DNA of 63,847 nt, the filler included, from Neolecta irregularis DAH-3 (Eukaryota), in NCBI GenBank assembly GCA_001929475.1. It is 4 parts of 4 records of this genome, joined end to end, with 100 filler letters (N's around TTAATTAATTAA, not from the genome) between each part and the next. Parts side by side here need not be neighbours in the genome. Positions count along the whole stretch, not along the records: positions 53,281 to 63,847 come from LXFE01003878.1; 3 more parts are not named here. One strand, 5' to 3'. The position numbers and the translations under genes were made by a program. How positions within the stretch are numbered: position 1 is the stretch's first letter; each line of letters begins with the position of its first letter. Positions 3,145 through 63,847 of the stretch are shown here, piece by piece. The notes beneath the pieces were generated by a model. It did no database searches. It was not told the origin of the DNA and saw nothing but the letters and a program-made list of their open reading frames with translations.

Positions 3145-3798
3145 TTTTCATCTATTCTTTATGATCTTTTCTACCCGGAGTATTCCTTAGTGCATCTGAT
3201 TCTATCTGTATTTCTTCTCTTCTACATTTCTTTGCGCTCTTGTTCCAGGAATTCAAACTTCAGCTCTCCCTTGAACTTCTTGATGTTCATCTCTTGCAAA
3301 ACGATCATTGTCCTCTGCAGTCAGTCAACTCTTTGCGTCGAATCATAGCGACCAACAGCCGAATTTCATCTGTAACATTCATGTCGAGAATGTCACGACA
3401 TATAAAGTCTGATTTTACGTTAAGCTTCGCACAAGTTGCATCGCCTTCTGGAAACTTTTTCAACAGCCCAATGTGCTATTTGTTGTTAATTATTTCTATC
3501 CCATGCTTTTGTAAAACCTTTTCCAAAAAGTATTGATGACTGGGTGATCAAGGACCACTGTGGCATCTGGATAGATTTAGTTGAGCCTATGTTTGATTCC
3601 ATTCATGGAATTTCTGTTAAACCCCAATTCAAAATGGCCCAGTGGTCTTTTGACAACTGTAATAGGCCATTCGCGTAACCAAAATTTACAGAGAGATTTT
3701 AAGAGATCCATTTTTTCTAAAGTTACCGGGGTTGTATAATGATGGGTGGGTTCTTCAATCGTCTCGTGCTCATAAACTATTGAGTCGTCGAGGTGTTC

Positions 3799-3979
3799 TG
3801 TAAGCGTAAACCTATGGCACACGCTTACCAATACGGGAAGAAGGCTTTCAATGATATTGCGGCAATTAAAATTGTAGTATATAATATAAATAGGCGATTC
3901 ATACCTAGCCAAGTCGCCAATACTAAGGCTAGAAACAATATAACCTAGTCTTATTCGTATCTGGGCTTCAATACTTACA
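3799..3979 (-). mobile_element. Solo LTR, 181 bp
   Basis: TGTAAG...CTTACA termini, perfect 5-bp TSD TGTTC at 3794-3798 and 3980-3984; homologous in reverse complement to 41612-41792. Confidence 0.85.
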
Positions 3980-14346: not shown

Positions 14347-14565
14347 TGTAAGCTTAACGCCAGAAGTTACAAATAAGACCAGGATATATTTCTAGCCTAA
14401 GTGTTGTAACNNNNNNNNNNNNNNNNNNNNNNNNNNNNNNNNNNNNNNNNNNNNTTAATTAATTAANNNNNNNNNNNNNNNNNNNNNNNNNNNNNNNNNN
14501 NNNNNNNNNNCGCAATATTAATGCAAGCCTTCCTTCTGTGCGTGTACCATAGGTAGACGCTTACA
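14347..14565 (+). mobile_element. LTR fragments on both sides of an assembly gap
   Basis: TGTAAG start at 14347; after the gap 14511-14565 ends CTTACA and is near-identical to the 3' part of the 41612-41792 copy. Confidence 0.7.
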
Positions 14566-15033
14566 AGAACAATGACCAATCCTAGGATGATCATAAAAGG
14601 GCTATGTAGGCTTCTTTTTCATAGACTAGGATACTCTCTGAATTTCTTTGATAATTTGATTCCATGGCACAAGACACCACCCCACCCTCGCGCAGCTAAG
14701 ATTCCAAATACCCCATTGTCACCAAGAACTAAATACGCATAAAAGCAATCAAACTCACTGTGAATCCTGATTAGAACCTATGTGTTAACAAGTTGCAAGG
14801 TTGGAGAACTCGGGCATTTTGCCACAATCTGTTTCGCACTTTGGGAGAAAGACCCACATTGCAATTGTGAATTCATTATTGGCCGTAATACGATTTGCCT
14901 TCCTTGTTATCAAAGTCTAACAAATTATTGGTAATGTATATTGTAAATCTAGAAATATGACAGCTGTGTTGCAAATGATAATCAAACAATTCAAACTCTA
15001 TAACGGAGCCAATAAAGTTTGACGGTGCGAATC

Positions 15034-23651: not shown

Positions 23652-24323
23652 TCAGTAAACAACAGCAAAACANNNNNNNNNNCGCGTAGGATTTCCACGT
23701 TGTAATATATCAGCACGCCGCAATTTCGCCTCTTTCTTCAATTCTATAACTTTACGTCGCAGCTCCAGTTTCTTCTTTGACTTTGGAATTATTCGTCCTT
23801 GTTCATTCCATTTCTCCCAGACACTATCACCTCTCCTTTTCCACCTTTCTTCGCGACGGGTTTGCTCTTCTTCAGTCATGGGCTTCCATTTCGATCTGAG
23901 AATGCGGCGAATCGCTTCTGGTGATACTTTGAAAATAGAGGATAATCTAGAAACGTCGTATTCGGGAAACTAGTAGAAATTCGTTAAAGTAAGAGATGCA
24001 AGAGTTACTTGTTTATTTAATGCCCTCACTCCCTCTATAGCATCCGGCGAAAGACGTTTAATAGGCTTCCAGCCCTCTGGAAATTTCTTTTTTAATGCCA
24101 GTTGCTGTTGTTGCCAAGGCTCAAGTTTGACAAATTTGCTGTTTGGAAATATTGGCGGGGGTTTTGGTTTGGGCAGTTCATCAGGGAAACGAATTGCAGG
24201 GTTTGGAAGGATCCATTTATCTATGCGGTTTCGTTGTAGGCAAGGTATATTTGAGAATAGACGCGACAAGGCGATGATATGAGATTTGGAAATGGATGTC
24301 CCGTTACAGTTTGATATAGGCAT
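23652..24323 (-). CDS. RRG9: Neugrin-family mitochondrial protein Rrg9 (3' end uncertain, gap)
   Basis: [55 protein letters not shown]. Confidence 0.85.
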
Positions 24324-41611: not shown

Positions 41612-41792
41612 CGTAAGTATTGAAGCCCAGATACAAATAAGACCAGGCTGTATTGTTTCTAGCCTAAGTGTTGGCGACTTGGCTACGTATCAACAGCCTA
41701 TCTATATTATATACAACAATTTTAATTGCCGCAATATTAATGCAAGCCTTCCTTCTGTATTGGTAAGCGTGTACCATAGGTAGACGCTTACA
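41612..41792 (+). mobile_element. LTR preceded by polypurine tract (probable 3' LTR)
   Basis: CGTAAG...CTTACA, homologous to 3799-3979; preceded by ggatagggatgagacagggaaggg; no TSD. Confidence 0.75.
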
Positions 41793-41932
41793 AGAACAAT
41801 GACCAATCCTAGGATGATCATAAAAGGGCTATNNNNNNNNNNNNNNNNNNNNNNNNNNNNNNNNNNNNNNNNNNNNTTAATTAATTAANNNNNNNNNNNN
41901 NNNNNNNNNNNNNNNNNNNNNNNNNNNNNNNN

Positions 41933-52347: not shown

Positions 52348-53280
52348 GCGGGCGACAATTTTGGCGAGAGAGACGGAGAGGGGTGGTTATCTGGGCGACT
52401 GGCGGGAAGCGCAGTTGTTTGCTCGTTCGGGTTGTTTGCCGTTCACCGGAAGAGGGGTTAGTTGCCCGTTCAGCGGAGGCAGCGGTTCGTTGCTAGGTTT
52501 GGTGGGCCACAACTGGTTCAGAAGCAAAAGGCGAGCGACATATCGTTCTGGTGCAATTGAACGCAAGGAGGCTTTGGGGGGGCATTCGGGTGTACAATAC
52601 GCCCAATCGGGCGGGTGCCTTGCGTGTCTCACCACCATCCCATTTCCGTCCTCAAGGCCCCGATGGTGCAGGGGCACGCAGCATTGTCTTTCCGCACAAA
52701 CAGCCTCCTTAGCCTGTTCGCCAACTACTCTCTAAGGAAATGAGCCCGCCAATTGGCCGGTCAAGTTGAATAAAATGAATCACTACAACTTTTGCTCTTA
52801 GCAGTGCACCTTGAGCCTGCTTCCTCCTGTGATTTGGTTGCTCCCAATGTCTGGGATATCCATTCCCTTCAACATCCACCCCGCCTCTCAGAAAGAGCTT
52901 GAGCTCACCACGTTGACTTCTCCCTCAGGTCTCCTCAAATGTGCCCTTCTCAACCAGGGCCCCTCCATTGTATCTCTAATCAAGGAATCAACCCACCAGA
53001 TCTGGGCTCAGTGTTGGCTATGGGCCATGGGCTTTTAAGCCCATGGGTCGAAACGGGCTTTTTCACGTGATATTAAATAATACTTTGCAGCCCTTCTCCT
53101 CCCATTTCTCCTCCCTAACCGCCACTTTGAGGATGTCCTTCGTTCGTTTGCCGGTGGCGGTGGTTAGTGGCTGGGGGGGGNNNNNNNNNNNNNNNNNNNN
53201 NNNNNNNNNNNNNNNNNNNNNNNNTTAATTAATTAANNNNNNNNNNNNNNNNNNNNNNNNNNNNNNNNNNNNNNNNNNNN

Positions 53281-53823
53281 GCCAGTTCGCTGATACAAGA
53301 CACATCTAGAGGGTCAAGGATGGATCGGGTATATGCGCGCACCTATGCTGCGATGGCTGAGATATGCTGCGAAGCGGGGCATGTGGACCTCAAGAAACGC
53401 CCTGTCAAAATGCACAGAGTAGCCGCAGAGGAGCCCCTTCTTGGGACTGGTGACGTACTGCTGCACGTACTCGAGTAGCCGCATCTCTGTCTGCTCGACG
53501 GTGTGGGTTGAATTCTGGGCGGCTGCGACGAGTCCGCTCCCGGTGTGCTGCGCTGTGCACCAGCTGTCCATCTGGGCGAGCACCTGCGGGGGCTGGTATA
53601 TAGTCTCCTGGAAGCCGTCCTGTACGATTAGGACAGGGGACGATGGGAAGCGAACATTGTGGAGCGGGTTGAGGTCGTTGTCTGTGACGAGGGCGGCAAC
53701 CTGCAGCATATGGTCATTGCGCGGACTCAGGCCTGTGGTTTCGCAGTCGACCCAGACGAGCGAGGCTGTGGAGCGGTGCAGCCGGGGGACGCGGACGCGC
53801 ACCAGTCGTAGGCGCTCGAGCAT
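53281..53823 (-). CDS. REX2: Oligoribonuclease (REX2/Orn, DEDDh) paralog A; 3' end in gap
   Basis: LVWVDCETTGL, MDSWCTAQHTGSGL, LCGYSVHFDRAFL, DVSCISELA. Confidence 0.88.
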
Positions 53824-54168
53824 TGAGACGGAAGGTCCCCCAATGTTGCACGTGCGCCAAGGCAGATCTCGCGCCCGTTGTTTTTCTACATGAAAAACAG
53901 CAGAAGCGAGACGGGCATGCACTTATGCTGAAGACTGCGAAGCGCAAATGCTAGGGCCGGGGAACAAGCATCTGGGCAAGATACATAACACGCAAGTTTG
54001 GCTGCGGGCGCGCGTCCGAGTGATCTGAAGGGGCTACGCCCGCAGTAAAAAAGGTGGGCGGCCCCGCCTAAATCCTGCCGCCAGCCTTCTCTCTCTCTCG
54101 CTCTGCCTACGTACACAGCCGAAATCCGCCCACACAGCGCACTCCACCACACCGCTCAACAACACAGT

Positions 54169-54746
54169 ATGCCCAAAGCAGCCACCAAACCCCGCGCAAC
54201 CAGAAAGGCCGCTCCGACAACCAAATCAAAGAAAGGTGCATCCTCATTATATGCTCGCTGATCTCGCAGACCCAAACCACCCAAAGAGAGCACTTTCGGC
54301 TTACATGTTCTTCGCAAATGTACCAACTACACTCTTACCCCCCAAATAATGACTCCTCACAGGAAGAACGGCCAAAAGTCATCCAGGAATCCCCTGAAAC
54401 TTCGTTTGGTATGTGCAATTTCCTTTTCCTGCAGTGTCCCACGCTGCCTCACACGCGTCTGCCAATTGACTCGCATGCGGCTCACATTTTGTTCCCTCCC
54501 GCGTCCCTTCGCGTTTCTTGCCCTCTGCTTACCGTTCCAGGCCAAATCGGCAAAATCCTCGGCGTACGATGGAAAAACCTGTCTCCTGAACAACGGAAGG
54601 CATATAGCCTTCAATTGCCCATACTCACCCTCTAGCCGTTTGACAAGAAGGCCGCTGAGGACAAGAAGCGATATGAAACCCAAAAGGCTGCATATATCGC
54701 CAAGCCAGCCTCTGCCGGTGAAGAAGAAGAGGAGGACGAAGAATAG
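54169..54746 (+). CDS. NHP6: HMG-box non-histone protein Nhp6
   Basis: KKDPNHPKRALSAYMFFAN..R..V....P..FGQIGKILG.RWKNL, DKKRYE, acidic tail; four introns. Confidence 0.93.
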
Positions 54747-55045
54747 CTTTAAACACTGCCTTGTCATGGCTGACTTTGTACGATGATATGCTGCTCTTGT
54801 TTCTTTATGCTTTGGTCTCACCCTGCTGTTGATGGTTCAGTCTCTTGTCTCTTTCTATGTTTCGTATTTAGTAGTTTGTTGTTCTGGTCGCGCGTATATG
54901 TATCAATGATTGAGGTGAGTCATAATGCAATGCCCGATATCGCTATACAGACCCGGATTAATTCAGTTACATCCTCGCAACTAGTATACCCCATGCATAC
55001 AATTCAAACTAAACCCAACTCCAAATCAAAAGAGTGCTACGCGTA

Positions 55046-58000
55046 TTACATATTCCTCCCAAACAATCCAGTCAAACTCTTCCTTTTATTTTCCGGTGTT
55101 GTAGGAGTCGGGGGTGGTTCAAGCGCAGCTGTACTTGTACTCAACAAAGCAGCCTTGCGTCGTCGGCGAGCTGAGCCGGCTCCCTTTTCTTCCACCGCCT
55201 CTAGGAGATGCCATTTTGTACCGTCAGGAAGATTACACGGGTTGTCGTTTGGTGCATTTTCAGAATCAACTATGGATTCTTCAAGACCCGAAATCCGGGC
55301 AAGTAAGAACTCGCGCGACGCAAGACGATGACAATCTTCCTCCTTCAAGAAATAATGCGGCGAACTTTGATTAAAAGCTGCCCAAGGCTTTTGACCATTG
55401 TTATTCCGTGTTGGCAGAAATAAAGCAAGGTCATCTTTCATAAAACTGTATGTCAGATCACAACACTTGAGAAACTCATACTTTCGATAAGCAATCTTAT
55501 CCCAAGCTTCATCCCTCGCCTTGTTGGCCTTTTCGCGATACCCCTTGGACTCTTTCTGCCATTTCCTAGCCATATATTCCGTTTCTAGTACACGCTTCTT
55601 GACCGTCTCTGAAAATGCATCAAAATCAAATTTAACCGTGTTCAAAAACTGGGCAAATTTCTCTCCTTCTTCTTCGCTATCTGGCGCGTTCGTCCAATAT
55701 AGTACGGTATTATCCGGAGTAAATTGGACTTTGTCGTCATTTACAGGCGACATGATTCCATTTTGCCTATGAGCGTCGAAACCAAGGGCAACAAGCAACT
55801 CGCTGGCTCGAGCATAAAAAGTGTAAAGACGTTGAGTCAGGTTTTGTGCCCGAATCGTCCGCGAATACAGACGAGATTGGAGTGTGTTAATCTTCTGTTC
55901 ATAATCATATGTCTTTTTCAATTGCATGTCGAATTTCTCGTTCAAAGTCGACTTTTCAGATTTAAGTGATTCAGTTTCCTGTTGAAGCTATCCATTAGTC
56001 TAGAGATAATTAAAGGAATACCTGGTCATATTGTTTCTCCACAGAATCCAATATGAAAGAAAGTGATAGTTCATCAGTGAGATCCTTTGGGGCCGATAGT
56101 CCTCGAATATTGGCTACAAGCTTCTCCAGCTCCATCTCAAGGTCTTTCCGCCGAGCATATTCTTGGTCCACATCGCGTTTCGAACTTTCAAGCATTGACA
56201 ACACTTGCAAGTTTTGAGCTTTCTGGGTGTCATGTTCCGCGACCAGCATCCCATATTGTTCATCCCGGTTGGCAAGTTCTTCCTTCATCTTGACCTGCAA
56301 TTCCTCAAATTTCTGAAGAGCATTGTCTTTATCTATAGTCGTCGCCAGAAAATTCTCCTCCAGCTTACCATATCGATATCTGAGAAGATCAAGTTGTTCT
56401 TCATTCCAATTCGCTTCAGCAGCTACCACATCTTCGCTCATCTTGATAGCCTTCCGAAGCTCGTTGATAGCCCGTGAACCTACTTCTAATTGATCCTGAT
56501 GGAGACGTGAAGCGACCTCTCGATCTTTTCGCCAAGTATCAAGTTCTTCCTCGAGTTCTCCCATCCGCATATGCAAATCTTCATTATCTCCCCGAAGTTG
56601 ACAAATCAAATCTTCAAGTTCTTCAATCTTGTCTTCATCTTCTAATTCTTCTATTCGATGAACCAGCTCATCAATCTGAGCACGTAGGTCTTTTCTTTCA
56701 GATACAAAATCAGCTTGTTGGGCTTCCAGATTTTTGAGAAGATCGTTCTTAACTTCATCAGTCTCAAGCAGTCTTGAATTCAAAATCTTCTCAGAAGTGG
56801 CTTTCAATTCCAGCTCTACTTTCAACGAGGAAATCTCCTCAGTATACTTTTCGAGTTCTTGTTTGTATTGTGGAGATAAAGGTATCGCCATGGGTGAACT
56901 TTCCACATTTTCCGACGTGAGTGCTTTTATTTTGGCTTTAAGTGATTCGATTTCTTCCGCTTGCCGAGAGATTTCGTCTATAGCATTTTTTGAAACAGAT
57001 TCCCTATCTCTACGCACTATTCGCGGCGAAGGCCCTGTATTATCGCTCTGTGGGGATATGGGTGTAGTAGGTGAACTGTAATTATGGACATTTGCATCAA
57101 GAGTGGGGTTTTGTTGATTCTGCTTGAATAGCATTTCTTCGAGATTACGAATTCGAGAGAGATGGTTCTTCATGTTAGCTCAATTAATCATATAAACTTA
57201 CCTTGCATTGCTCCTCAAGAGCCTCTTTTTCTCGATTGATTATAGCCAGTTGGTTCATGTCAGGAGGATCTGTAAGAGAAACGATTCTACGGGTACTAAT
57301 CCGATTGGACTTGAACGCCTTGGCATTCAGGCCTCCGTTGAGAAAATCAGCCGTCGAATTCGCGAGCGATATTCTTTCTGCTGTCCGGACAGCGTCGTTC
57401 AAGCGCAATAACATTTCGTTATCAAAACCAAAACTCTGTAACAATTCAATATAACTCATGACTTCTTCACGCGTGACACGAACGACTGTTCCAGACTGAA
57501 CGTTGAACGTGATTTCAGCAGTTTTCTCGACTTCAGCCTTGATGCGAGAATTGATTTCAATAAACTGCTGAACCCATTTCTGACGCCGAGATTCTTCCAC
57601 ATCATTCAGATCTTTGAGATCCTCGGAAATCTTCGTGGCTCGTTTCAGAATCCATTCGCCCCAGATAGTTCGTCTGTAATACTCAATAAGAAGACTCCCA
57701 TAGGCCTCTGGAATCGAATTTACCTCCTCGAGCAACATCCGGTCGTTTTGATCTTCCAGACTAAACTGAACGAGTCCAGATATAGTGTTGCGAAGATGAA
57801 TCATCTGTATCTGTATTTGTGACAGATCCTGCAGATGTAAAAGAGCGTTTCGTGATAAAGATAGCTGTAAAGTCAATTGTGCCGGCATAAGGTGTTGCCA
57901 TACTTTCATCTTCATGATATTCTCAAATTTGAGATACAATGTGGAAGACCATGTAGATAATGTCGGAATATGCTCATCCGTATGCGATTGATGGTATTTA

Positions 58001-59031
58001 AGCTTTCGCTCCTGAGACTGTGGTCTTGACGATTGAACATACAGATCTCGAAATTCTGATACATTAACTGCAGGTAAGGGAGATCAGGAACCTCTGTCGA
58101 CCTGTGCGGCGGTGCGCACAATATCTTCAATCACCCACGACACCCTGTCGAGAGACTCTAAGGAAGTATTCTTGCTTGTAGTTAGCAACCTTGAGAATTA
58201 GATACATACGTCCATAACGCAACCTTCTTTTTCAGGTCCTCTGTATTTTTCCCAATATCTGCAAACACACTTGAGGCTTTCAAGACATCTGATCGAAAGG
58301 CCTCGTTGGACTCGAAATACCGATTTTTCGCAGATTGAACTAATTCCATATCGATTAAATCTGAGAGATTTGTCACATCAAGTATTCCAGATTTTATTTG
58401 AATTTTCCCGAGATTTTCGAGGCGAGAATCGAAATCTGTCAATAAACAGTCTTGCTCCTGAAGGTCTTTCATAGCATTTTGTTCCCATGCGGTGACATTT
58501 TGCAAGACCGTCTTTGTCTGGGTATTCAAATTGGCGATAGCAACCGCCACAGATTGCTGTATTACCCCAATTGCAGTTTTCTCTTCGTTGATGGTATATC
58601 TCATATCGACAGCATATTGTGCAACCTCTTTCGCCCATTGGACGCGTGCTTGAAAAGCAGAAATGCTGTTCTCGTTGCCGAATGGAAGTTCGGGAGCTTT
58701 CTCAATAGGTTCGAAGGAATCATGTAACGAACTTTCGGCGTTGTCGGCCAAAAGTTCGCGGTTGAACACGAACAAATCTTCCTAAACCCAGATTAGTAAC
58801 TTTAGCAAAGCGTGTTTTACGAACATCATCCCGGAGGTCTTGGATTTTGAAATTATCCCCTCTCGAGGTCATCAATATCTGAGTGGCCGTACTGATATGA
58901 GCCTTGTGAGCAATCCATGCTTTCAATTCAGAAAAGCTAAAGGTATTAGATTTCGTTTCTGAAAATATTACGTACGAAGCACAGCGTGGAGGGGTTAGAG
59001 TATACCCCGAATGTGCCTCGAAGACTCTCAT
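55046..59031 (-). CDS. ATG11: Autophagy scaffold Atg11
   Basis: N-terminal QILMT..G and FVFNR, YGSLLIE..RR, long coiled coil, C-terminal KIAYR.F..DDLALFLPTRN..WAAFN..PHYFL claw domain. Confidence 0.92.
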
Positions 59032-59393
59032 TCTTCCCACCGCAAAGATCGAGCATGTAAAGAAAGCAGAATAGCAGGTGAATATGGTATAGTGCACACG
59101 AAATAGATTTGGGCTTGTTTGGGCGAAAGCTTGATCAGAATCTGGAGAGCCACGACCGCAAGCGTGTTCCTCTTATCGGCCCGATTGGCGTTAGACGAAT
59201 AGACGATTTTCTTCACAAAAGCATCAAGTTTACTAGACATGCATTTATAAAGAAGATTTGTACACCAAGTATTAAGATTCTAGAAATATATAGCCCGCTT
59301 CGGGATGGACCGGAACGTTCTTCGATTTGATCATTTGTAAAAGTAAAGATCACGACAAAAATTTTCTAGATCTTGTCGAATCCATTCTGCGAA

Positions 59394-60631
59394 ATGTTTC
59401 GCACGTCCCTCAGAAAGTCTTCTAGTGCATCTATGTCCAAGATCATTCGCATGAGTCATAGTGCAACTACCGCTTCTCCGACGAGATCAAAGTTTCTTAC
59501 GTTCGTTGCTTTGACTACACTTGCAGTCTCATACCAGCTCTACTCAGCGGCCCCCATTCGCCTAGATGCGAAAGGTGCTTGTCTTTCTGTAGTGCTTGTT
59601 TAATACCATTTAGACCAAGGCGTCTCACATCCTGTGAAACCAATTGCATCAAAAGCATCAACGCTCGCCCAAAAGAGATCAGGGCCTGAAGCATCTACGA
59701 CGAAAGATCCAGCATCAAAGTCCAGGTCAGATCGTGAAAAATCACAGGAAGCATCTAAAGGAGATGAACCTATCAAGAAAGCGCAAGATCATACCGCGAA
59801 TGAAACAGGACAGAATAGTGGAAATGCATCAAATAAAAAGGATGTTATCTCTCGTATCTTCACCATTCAAAACATGCTCACACTCTAGATGATCAGCCTG
59901 TGAAAGCCCCCATGGAGAATGATTCCCAGGTTCATTCACCCAACAACACAACGGTTAAGCCGGCTCATGACGGCATTATCCCTTTCTTGAATGCACTAAC
60001 TTTATAGAAGAACAACCTCAGCAGGGTCTCGGTCAAGAAGACGAAGGCCAAGATGGTGCTTATAGTATACAGACAAATATCCCGATCGGAATTTAATTTC
60101 TAGATGAAGTTACTGGTGAAATTAACTGGGACTGTCCATGTCTAGGTGGAATGGCCCACGGACCATGCGGAGAAGAATTCAAGGAAGCCTTTAGTTGTTT
60201 CGTTTATTCCAAGACAGAACCAAAGGGGAGCGAATGCATTGAGAAATTCAAATCAATGCAAGATTGTTTCAAGGAACATCCAGACATCTATAGTGATCGT
60301 ATGGTAACCTTGGATTGTTAAGCTGATTTCTACAGAGTTTGATGACGACAATGCAGAAGAGCAATCGAAGGATGAAATGGAGACATTTGAACACCCGGCC
60401 GAGAAAGAGGATGCTATGCCTAATCAACCAACCACAAAAGCTCAGTCTAAGGAAGAAAAAAGACAACCAAAAGACAACAAATCAGGGACGTCGAAGTCAG
60501 AGAAGATGACCCAGAGGAGGGGACCGACTTCTAGTGATCCAGGCTCTCAGGAGGAGTTGGACAATAAACAGATCAAGACAATGCCTGAGGAATCGTCCGC
60601 CGCTAAGAAAGTATCCAAGTCAAAGAATTAA
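59394..60631 (+). CDS. MIA40: Mitochondrial IMS import receptor Mia40
   Basis: [43 protein letters not shown] (CPC plus twin CX9C); presequence and TM. Confidence 0.95.
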
Positions 60632-60751
60632 CAAAATATATTCATATCATCTCGGTAATTTCGGATTAATTTCTTTTTATTAGGAATAATGTCCAAAATA
60701 CATAGTGTATCAACAGAAGATTTTTATTCAAAAAATTCATCCTGATTAGAG

Positions 60752-61983
60752 TCACCAACTTCTCCTCTGTTCGTGGTCCAATACAAGATCTAATTTGTCG
60801 CCTGTAATCTTTGGACAGGTCGGGTAAAAAAAGGGCTGCACAATCTCATCAACCACGTTCATAAATAAAGATTCGACAATATCTCCCAATTCGTTTCCAG
60901 TTTGTTTAAAGTCGGGATACTTGCGGTCAGATAATGTTCACCACGGAGGAGATCTCACTGCGTTGACTTCTAAAAGATATACGTTCAATTGATCATCGAT
61001 CAGATAATCCACACCAAATATTTCAAAAGCATTAGGTAATGTCTGGAATTAAATTCCAAAACAGATCACTTGCGTACCTGAAAATGGACACTTTGTGTCG
61101 ACAGCGCACTTTGAAAAACCTCTCTCGTTACGATCTTCAGTCTTTCGTAAATAGTGCCTTTCCCTTCAAACTCTAAATCCCAAAACCTCTGAACATGCTG
61201 CCCTGGATATTCTTGACGACAAGTATTAGTCAAGTGTACATCTAAATCAGTCGACTCATTCGGGGTTCGATATTCTTTGCTCGCAAATAAGGATAACATA
61301 TCTCGATAAACATAAACCTTCATACTACCGAACGCAACAATATAAGCACGAATATGAAATTTTCGATTATTCAGTAAAAGGGGATTCGAGATATATTTCT
61401 GGATAACGAAATGTCGAAGTTGACTTGTTATTATTCCATCATCTCCTTCATCTTCACTGTCTGACTCTTCAAAGCTCCTGAATATTTCTTCTAGTTCGTG
61501 ATACGAACTGAACAATCGAATCCCTTGTCCCCGATCTGCCATTCCGGGTTTCAGTATGAACCAAGTCTTATCAACTCTAGATCCATTCGATTCAAGCTCG
61601 TCTTTGAGTTCGTAGGAGTCAGATAATGCTTCATCCAAATATTCGACATAGTCTATTTCTATTGCCCATGTCTCGATCCGATGATATTTCAAATATGAAT
61701 TTGGACATTTTGTGATGTATGTATCAATGGTTTGTTGAAGGTAGTGTTTCCTGATAAGCGCTTTTCGGATAATATAGGCGCAACATAGCGAAGTAGTTTG
61801 ATGTTTTAAAAAATATTCAAAGTCAATTTCTTCGTAATCTGACCAGCAAAGGAATTTCTCTGATTGTTCTACAGGAGATTTGCAGGTATATTTTGCTTCG
61901 GGAAATCTGAGAGCAAAGACGCTGCGTAGTCTTTGTAAAGCGTAGTCATCCGTGTATTTCAAATGGATTGTTAGCGTAGACAT
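60752..61983 (-). CDS. Tubulin-tyrosine-ligase (ATP-grasp) domain protein, Pby1-like without SurE domain
   Basis: YIIRKALIRKH, ILKPGMADRGQGIRLF, QLRHFVIQKYI, RKFHIRAY, HLTNTC, LLEVNAYPDF. Confidence 0.9.
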
Positions 61984-61999
61984 TTCCAGGGACGCCTAA

Positions 62000-62234
62000 T
62001 GTAAGTAATACGCCTGAGGTAAAACTAAGACTAGGTTTAATTGTCCAACCTATGTGATATGAACATAACTCCCAGGGAATATACCTAACCTATGTTATAT
62101 GAATGTAACTCAGGTTAGGTATATGTTGTTCCCTTCTTTATATTTTATATATGTACTGTAAGTGTTCCCCTGAAGTACGAATAAGACCCGGTATATATTC
62201 TAACCAAGGTAAGTGAACTTCTATATACATGAGT
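62000..62234 (+). mobile_element. Two diverged LTR-like fragments
   Basis: TGTAAG starts at 62000 and 62157, followed by family-like taagactaggtt...cctatgtg and tacgaataagacc..tatattcta. Confidence 0.55.
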
Positions 62235-62244
62235 NNNNNNNNNN

Positions 62245-62482
62245 GTCCATCACCTCCTTGCTCTGATGCACTGTCACCTGGAACCCATTCTACCATCAGC
62301 CTGTTCTATCTTGGCCCAAATACAGTATCAACAATATTCAAATCATCATCTGTAATCAACGCTGCGATTTGAATTATACGGTCTTTGGCGCGGTCCAGTC
62401 CTGTCATTTCACAGTCGACCCAAATTAACGAATGCATTAAATGGTAATATCGAGACGTTGCTTTTAATATTGTCGCACGCAT
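62245..62482 (-). CDS. REX2: Oligoribonuclease paralog C, 5' part (rest in gap or lost)
   Basis: [37 protein letters not shown], intron, [15 protein letters not shown]. Confidence 0.8.
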
Positions 62483-62574
62483 AGAAGAAAAAATATGATA
62501 TCATTCCATCCGTTTCGGAATTTATATTCCCACAATATTATTTTATATTGTTATCCGTATTTTATTGTTATTGG

Positions 62575-62665
62575 TATTTTATATTATCGGTATTATATTA
62601 TCGGTATTATATTATCGGTATTATATTATCGGTATTATATTATCGGTATTTATATCGGTATTTAT
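62575..62665. repeat. 14-bp minisatellite (TATTATATTATCGG), ~5 copies plus degenerate ends
   Basis: Directly visible; bracketed by direct repeat tttatattcccacaat at 62521 and 62661. Confidence 0.92.
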
Positions 62666-62744
62666 ATTCCCACAATGTTGAGTACAATGTTATTTTATTC
62701 TTGAAATTACATTCTCCTACGTGCCTATTTCCTGGTATTCGACC

Positions 62745-63453
62745 TCAACGTAACCAAAGTCTCTTGTATCCAGCAAGCTGTTTTATCGAAGCTCGGATAT
62801 CAGACATGGCAGTATGGTCAGCAGGTGTAGCCCTATGCATAATCTTCTTCATAATAGGCGAGTTCCACCGCTTAGCTAATTCCCTGATCGTCGAAACATC
62901 TACTAAATCAGAAAAGAATATATCTAAAATGACCAATCATTCGGTGACTGAGATGAGCAATCACATTTGGCATATCGTTCTCCATGAATCGTCGGTCATA
63001 GTAGACTGACGAACCGCACAGGATACCATGGCCCGGCGCCACCCGCTTCGAAATATATTCCAAAACTCGTTGTTGTGCGTCTTCAGTCGTAATTGTAGAT
63101 TCTTTGACAGCCGCAAGTAACCCGCTTTTCTCATGTTGTTTAGCACTCCACTCATTCATCCCTTCCAATACTTGTGCAGGATGCGAAATTACAAGTTCAA
63201 TGCCCTGTTAGTAAATACAATAACCAGATATACAAACCGGATCCAGAATTTGGAGTTTATCATTTGTTATGAGGACTGCTATCTGGATAATCTTGTCATT
63301 CTTCGTATCAAGACCAGTCATTTCACAGTCAATCCATGTGTACTTGGACGGCGACGCATGTCTGCCTTGGCCTGGTCGCTTTTTACTAGTGCTTTTAAAG
63401 CGATGTGTTAAGAAAAAAGTCGTGCGAGGCCGATAAAGGCGAACAGCGTTCAT
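62745..63453 (-). CDS. REX2: Oligoribonuclease paralog B (complete, 3 exons)
   Basis: [59 protein letters not shown]. Confidence 0.9.
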
Positions 63454-63498
63454 TGGCGGTGATTCAAAAAATTACATTTAAATGCACCATCATATAAC

Positions 63499-63847
63499 CT
63501 ATCTAAGCCATGTTTTCCGATAGTGTCTCAAGTCTGATAAACTCGCTCGAATATCTTGCATTGCCAGGTGAGCAGATTGGCCCTGTCTAGCAATCCTGAC
63601 ATCCGGTCTCCAGCGTCTCGCCAGTTCGCTGATACAAGACACATCTAGAGGGTCAAGGATGGATCGGGTATATGCGCGCACCTATACTGCGATGGCTGAG
63701 ATACGCTGCGAAGCGGGGCATGTGGACCTCAAGAAACGCCCTGTCAAAATGCACAGAGTAGCCGCAGAGGNNNNNNNNNNATCCATCACCTCCTTGCTCT
63801 GATGCACTGTCACCTGGAACCCATTCTACCATCAGCCTGTTCTATCT
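63499..63847 (-). CDS. REX2: Oligoribonuclease copy D, 3' part (gap inside; extends beyond window)
   Basis: LCGYSVHFDRAFL, DVSCISELARRW, HLAMQDIRASL. Confidence 0.8.

Follow-up and report, generated by a model that had tools for sequence, protein, structure and literature searches.

Neolecta irregularis DAH-3 carries three separate genes for oligoribonuclease (Orn; REX2 in fungi, REXO2 in human), here called A, B and C, which lie head to tail on the minus strand in the order A-B-C, and spliced transcripts with intact reading frames were seen for each of them. We judge it somewhat better than an even chance that this array is an old tandem triplication in which a housekeeping copy, C, was kept and two diverged, probably mitochondrial dinucleases, A and B, were added. 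In the window (the whole stretch of 63,847 nt that was analysed, in which parts of four records are joined end to end), contig C118 occupies positions 53281-63847 and holds A, B and the 5′ part of C. The genome comprises 14.18 Mb in 4542 contigs, and the public assembly interrupts two of the three REX2 genes.

Anatomy of the array

The features of C118 that define the array and its misassembly are as follows.

53281-53823, minus strand: gene A, 5′ part (ATG at 53823; intron 1, 53654-53619; intron 2, 53342-53306; start of exon 3; PF00929 match, E 9.6e-18)
62000-62234 (about), unstranded: dispersed genomic repeat (about 38 of 41 genome-search matches fall on this stretch; loose contig ends)
62235-62244, unstranded: 10-N gap, a false join of the gene C 5′ part to the repeat upstream of the TTL gene
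62245-62482, minus strand: gene C, 5′ part (in-frame ATGs at 62482 and 62437; intron 62323-62290; remainder on contig C3290, L006, minus strand, from 633)
62543-62650, unstranded: 14-nt minisatellite in the 262-nt B-C spacer, flanked by a 25-nt direct repeat (62515-62539 and 62655-62679)
62745-63453, minus strand: gene B (ATG at 63453; introns at about 63237-63205 and 62933-62900)
63499-63770, minus strand: gene A, 3′ part (stop ends at 63499; 63620-63770 overlaps 53281-53431)
63771-63780, unstranded: 10-N gap, a false join of a duplicate scrap to the gene A 3′ part
63781-63847, minus strand: duplicate scrap of the end of the gene C 5′ part, an assembly artefact (last base differs, synonymous)

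The segment at 53281-53823, which the initial annotation had counted as a fourth gene, is the 5′ part of gene A. In a self-comparison of the window, the 151 nt at 53281-53431 recur at 63620-63770 with 98.7% identity and 2 differences, both synonymous, and 63782-63847 is identical to 62246-62311 (66 nt, 100%). A single 1955-nt DNA contig from run X1 covers 62621-63704 and continues unbroken into 53366-54236, while a spliced contig from run X2 joins 63644 to 53343, a joint that corresponds to gene A intron 2 plus the false break; from these two contigs it follows that 53823-53281 and 63770-63499 form a single gene A. Gene C runs on from 62245 into C3290, a separate contig of 633 nt that contains the 3′ two thirds of a REX2 gene, since the first codons of C3290 extend the reading frame cut at 62245 and an X2 contig has, before 62245, a loose end that coincides with the end of C3290. 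C118 consists of three pieces whose orientation was kept and whose succession is the reverse of the true one; once corrected, the order along the minus strand is TTL, ATG11, A, B and C, followed by a convergent gene, with an NHP6-like gene on the opposite strand between ATG11 and A. When the genome was searched with an outside REX2, all 7 candidates belonged to three 5′ and three 3′ exon sets and to nothing else, such counts being lower bounds. On the self-overlap, the X1 and X2 contig joins and this search, four genes were rejected.

The layout draws on 15 of 25 contig joints. The two runs listed for this DNA, with no RNA run among them, come from the same study and are labelled ‘DNA?’; X1 is possibly the source of the DNA analysed here and not an independent sample, and the contigs of X2, despite the label, skip stretches with intron ends and so behave as spliced cDNA. 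We regard the anatomy of the array, three genes in this layout, as close to certain. The original description of three distinct Orn/REX2 proteins with the exon-1 motifs quoted for them, head to tail on the minus strand, agrees with the sequence and with the PF00929 matches.

The array had also been called repeat-associated. This does not hold in the corrected order, where the dispersed repeat at about 62000-62234 lies on another piece, upstream of TTL and about 8 kb from gene A; a repeat-driven array was rejected, as this repeat adjoins the array solely through a false join, and the minisatellite between B and C is the only repeat within it. The dispersed repeat contains internal direct and inverted repeats, has dozens of genomic relatives and is possibly a MITE-like element. 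A second dispersed repeat family is found at contig ends (window 3794-3978, 14349-14605 and 41613-41832). Other 10-N gaps of the assembly, for example 23673-23682, may also be false joins, and the window gaps at 14411-14510, 41833-41932 and 53181-53280 are artificial linker (N runs around a TTAA repeat), so that the genes flanking them are not necessarily neighbours. On contig C334 (L003:430-700), about 150 nt of an aldo-keto-reductase-like gene recur in inverted orientation just behind its 3′ end, and might fold into a hairpin RNA or might stem from misassembly.

Gene models, transcripts and selection

The complete proteins are 196 (A), 213 (B) and 194 (C) aa long and 45-52% identical in pairwise comparisons. 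PF00929 matches lie far above the cut-off for A, B and the C exon, hence the likeness is not due to chance. Intron 1 (phase 0), whose shared position had been noticed from the start, falls at the same alignment column in all three genes, and so does intron 2 (phase 1). Splicing of A intron 1 (skip 53618-53655), of both B introns and of C intron 1 (skip 62289-62324) was seen in X2 contigs. Pseudogenes were rejected, including the possibility raised earlier that all but one copy might be dead, as A, B and C are spliced (C at intron 1) and intact.

The public record of protein B (P0006) names it an N. irregularis oligoribonuclease. B intron 2 (62900-62933) has tandem acceptors, of which the public model uses the nearer (adding one Val) and the spliced contig the farther, and in the public gene A model (P0001, 169 aa) the reading runs into introns and the last exon is missing. 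At 4 sites of gene B, X1 and the window disagree; by our own reading, 2 of these alter presequence residues, 1 changes Ile to Leu and 1 is silent.

Among the three genes pS is 0.75-0.89, which is saturated, compared with a pN of 0.32-0.39. Since synonymous sites are saturated at such values of pN, the copies are, by these sequence estimates, old and all under purifying selection. The spacer from the A stop to the B ATG measures 45 nt (63454-63498) and that from the B stop to the C start 262 nt. Either the promoter of B must lie within A, or A and B must be carried on a common RNA. A and B could be read from one RNA; a single X2 contig spans B and A and proceeds into ATG11, although a multi-gene contig does not prove one transcript.

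Fold and active site

Protein B, the only one folded, was modelled from a 100-row alignment with a mean pLDDT of 90.9 (35 from the single sequence). Every one of the best structure matches listed is an Orn or REXO2 protein (rmsd 1.2-1.8 Å in the top matches), as are 24 of 24 PDB sequence matches, and the B fold as modelled is that of Orn, not of RNase T or Rex1/Rex3.

The residues of A, B and C were compared with those of 148 other Orn domains (Vibrio numbering), the catalytic, clamp and phosphate-cap roles being those given in the available text of PMC6613908. All three proteins keep the PF00929 domain and the DEDDh residues D12, E14, D112, H158 and D163, together with L18, W61, H66 and the phosphate-cap residues S108, R130 and S135; the dimer-interface Ser, Leu and Trp named in the accessible part of PMC6521605 are also seen in the A/B/C alignment. 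Bacterial Orn (Vibrio cholerae 6N6A, E. coli 2IGI) has the same fold, DEDDh site, S108/R130/S135, W61 and L18, but the Neolecta genes differ from it in their introns, predicted presequences and Y129H. Human REXO2 (PDB 6N6I, 6RCI, 6STY) likewise shares the DEDDh fold (normalised by target length, the B model reaches TM 0.90-0.94 with 6N6I and 6RCI), the catalytic and clamp residues and a basic presequence, predicted in the Neolecta proteins, as well as, in C, the two-AUG layout. It differs from the Neolecta set, which consists of three tandem genes, in that the Tyr164 position is His in A, B and C, and in that A and B have no second AUG. His at position 129 also occurs in 17 of the 148 other domains. 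Judged from the residue, stacking can remain with Y129H, but the Tyr129 hydroxyl contact cannot be identical.

A further set of changes is confined to A and B. Both, but not C, are without equivalents of human His163 and Lys190 (the mapping to human numbering is ours); in the available text of PMC6521605, His163 stacks on Tyr164 and Lys190 belongs to a basic patch for longer substrates. A carries Thr for Met15 and Tyr for Asn107; in B, Ser takes the place of the pocket Cys and Tyr that of His110 (for the roles of these pocket-side residues, see the accessible parts of PMC6521605 and PMC7261184). Taken with the long branches of A and B, the pocket-side changes and the missing His163 and Lys190 equivalents could mean that A and/or B have ceased to be chiefly general dinucleases and prefer other ends, such as DNA, capped or modified dinucleotides or longer RNAs, or trim snRNA or 5.8S as yeast Rex2 does. 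We consider such new substrates unlikely, because all catalytic residues as well as S108, R130, S135, W61 and L18 are retained and the same changes are found singly in other Orn proteins (Thr15 in 11, Tyr110 in 33 and Ser62 in 22 of the 148); moreover, the Met15 contact is made through the backbone (PMC6521605, available text).

N-termini and the identity of copy C

The basic N-termini reported in the initial annotation are borne out by extensions of 23 (A), 39 (B) and 20 (C) residues, which contain 6, 10 and 3 Arg plus Lys, respectively, and at most 1 Asp plus Glu, in an analysis of charge and hydrophobic moment. A second in-frame Met before the catalytic Asp is present only in C. According to the available part of PMC3669425, two AUGs give rise to mitochondrial and cytosolic forms of human REXO2, and budding-yeast Rex2 acts in the nucleus and mitochondria. 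The yeast orthologue P0012 has one Met only before the domain and, considering that Rex2 works in two compartments, a single ATG is no proof of a mitochondria-only protein. The Lys/Arg run in the B extension could be a nuclear signal. The proposed specialisation by compartment keeps some support from the sequence, namely the second Met found in C alone.

C looks like the ancestral copy, given its two in-frame ATGs, as in human REXO2, and a neighbour that it probably has in common with fission-yeast rex2. The convergent gene that ends just past C on C3290 gave Atlas matches to RNase H2 subunit B (0.88 and 0.76), which are leads, and no Pfam match; the tail of its protein resembles a PCNA-binding box. 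Fission-yeast rex2 is SPBC1347.07 and the RNASEH2B orthologue is SPBC1347.08c (PMC5990653, available text); as read from the numbering, these are adjacent genes on opposite strands in the same convergent layout as at C. RNase H2 subunit B is therefore probably the neighbour shared by gene C and fission-yeast rex2, to go by sequence likeness. The PF09468 profile found 0 matches in the genome and was silent in all controls too. A single genome match to PF17745, considered as RNase H2 subunit B, was rejected; it looks spurious, being antisense to another reading frame.

History and evolutionary rates

In a 46-row tree (LG+G4), A, B and C group, with P0010 and P0106 nested beside B (86/92), and a constraint placing A+B+C together was not rejected (AU p 0.35). 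After removal of P0010 and P0106, which had been found by likeness to B, a 44-row tree under a mixture model recovered an A+B+C clade (99/96). This Neolecta clade stands beside Saccharomycotina and Pezizomycotina with weak support, and yeast Rex2/Ynt20 and fission-yeast rex2 belong to one orthologous group with the Neolecta genes, again with weak tree support. A 158-row FastTree joined A to C (0.92) and did not settle the position of B. Placing C alone with other ascomycetes was just rejected (p 0.046), and 4 derived states are common to A, B and C. None of the alternative orders of the two duplications was favoured (AU p 0.18-0.44).

End branches in the 44-row tree were 0.17 for C, 1.3 for A and 1.23 for B. 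In relative-rate tests, A was faster than C with 3 of 5 outgroups (p<0.05; the other 2 not significant) and B was faster than C with 2 of 5 (p<0.05; the other 3 not significant). Three biochemically equal enzymes, active in the same compartments and kept for dosage or for different life stages, would account for the conserved core and for the transcription and integrity of all three genes. Pure dosage copies, however, tend towards staying alike, and the 45-52% identity and unequal rates make this explanation doubtful; contig depth, for its part, cannot rank expression.

Fast-evolving extra copies might instead restrict RNA mycoviruses, much as yeast Rex2 helps to keep the L-A totivirus in check: in rex2 nuc1 mutants L-A builds up, and the cells do not survive high temperature (PMC10089162, available text). 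We give an antiviral arms race only a small chance. Tandem duplication with fast divergence would suit a conflict gene, and the genome contains NUC1 and Piwi matches on 5 contigs, but dS is saturated with no measurable positive selection, the yeast effect appears only without NUC1 and may be indirect (PMC10089162, same portion), and apart from fast evolution no measurement here speaks in its favour. A search of the genome for mitovirus and totivirus polymerase remnants gave 0 matches, with the controls equally silent. A broader version, in which RNA-virus conflict, or else short RNA ends of a new class, drove the divergence of A and B as mitochondrial Rex2 paralogues, is just as improbable. 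The Piwi (Argonaute) matches, on contigs C1759 (two, facing), C1168, C1235, C2049 and C2119, possibly mean that this small genome has more than one Argonaute gene, perhaps several.

Four or more copies, or an array created by the assembler or by mixed alleles, are scarcely credible: the four fragments in the window, the small differences between overlaps and the 4 X1 sites in B would fit, but contigs unite the fragments into three genes, the genome search found exactly three exon sets and 45-52% identity excludes alleles.

Copy number in relatives and in the literature

REX2 is usually a single-copy gene, and 80 of 80 loci agree. These loci, the best 80 of 550 confirmed stretches from a metagenome scan, each had one REX2/Orn gene in the fetched DNA when A, B, C and two further proteins served as queries, a test of neighbouring copies rather than of whole-genome number. 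About 33 of them look fungal by sequence, of which 14 are at least 10 kb; the rest are mostly bacterial, many of them short. Yeast and other fungal Rex2 differ from the Neolecta genes in having one copy per examined fungal locus as against three. The claim of a local expansion of diverged REX2 genes stands as regards the three paralogues and the lack of a neighbouring second copy in these 80 loci, but not as regards four copies. Other Taphrinomycotina were absent from 20 proteins looked up by name and from the 5, 1 and 7 matches of shallow shared-word homologue searches; with this set for comparison, the array is probably lineage-specific.

Two-domain Orn proteins occur in unrelated eukaryotes (P0007, P0022 and P0072). 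They resemble the Neolecta case in having more than one Orn domain per organism or predicted protein, but their domains are fused, whereas Neolecta has three separate genes. Because such proteins exist elsewhere, duplication of Orn/REX2 is sporadic and not unique to Neolecta.

None of 10 other ascomycete REX2 loci has TTL, ATG11 or RNase H2 B alongside, and just L035 and L036 carry an NHP6-like gene, at a distance of about 6.6 kb from REX2. Where ascomycete REX2 loci have introns, the intron comes right after the WIDCE motif, which differs from the intron-1 position in Neolecta. REX2 adjoins phosphoglucomutase in the Pezizomycotina-like loci L035, L039, L040, L050 and L054, mostly with a GFO/IDH/MocA oxidoreductase nearby, and DNA polymerase alpha in L045, L047 and L052.

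Judged by titles and the beginnings of abstracts, the literature yielded no paper that describes REX2 paralogues, be it for Neolecta or for another fungus. The N. irregularis genome paper emphasises gene-family loss and names a transcription-factor expansion, and its main text, so far as available, contains neither ‘rex2’ nor ‘oligoribonuclease’ (PMC5309816). The word ‘paralog’ is absent from the accessible portions of PMC9779919 and PMC8492067.

Discussion

In the reading that we favour, an old tandem triplication, the array A-B-C would have arisen through two local duplications that took place long ago in the lineage that led to Neolecta. By analogy with the family, each protein would be a homodimeric 3′-5′ exonuclease that clamps a dinucleotide bearing a 5′ phosphate, whether of RNA or DNA, and uses two Mg ions to cleave it into mononucleotides. 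C would be the ancestral housekeeping copy, whose two start codons would supply mitochondrial and cytosolic/nuclear forms, as in human REXO2. A and B, predicted to be made in the presequence-bearing form only, would serve as additional dinucleases of the mitochondria. With C still in charge of the work outside mitochondria, A and B may have drifted faster while purifying selection persisted, and this drift would include the loss of second-shell substrate-binding residues (the human His163 and Lys190 equivalents). As Orn active sites are built from two subunits, it is conceivable that A, B and C could form mixed dimers with new specificities.

The initial annotation had presented the locus as a candidate for an undescribed system. 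The three proteins are instead bona fide Orn/REXO2 members with an essentially intact dinuclease site, and neither a partner gene nor an RNA element was noticed; the array is an unusual case of the familiar process of gene duplication, affecting a housekeeping gene that normally exists as one copy, and no new kind of system.

RNA decay ends with the step performed by REX2/REXO2, an enzyme whose jobs, namely clearing dinucleotides in mitochondria, trimming nuclear RNA and, in yeast, antiviral help, are poorly separated. The small genome of this fungus, with three expressed paralogues of which one is conservative and two have diverged, would split these jobs into testable pieces, and the array offers a natural test of whether His can substitute for the ‘strict’ phosphate-cap Tyr.
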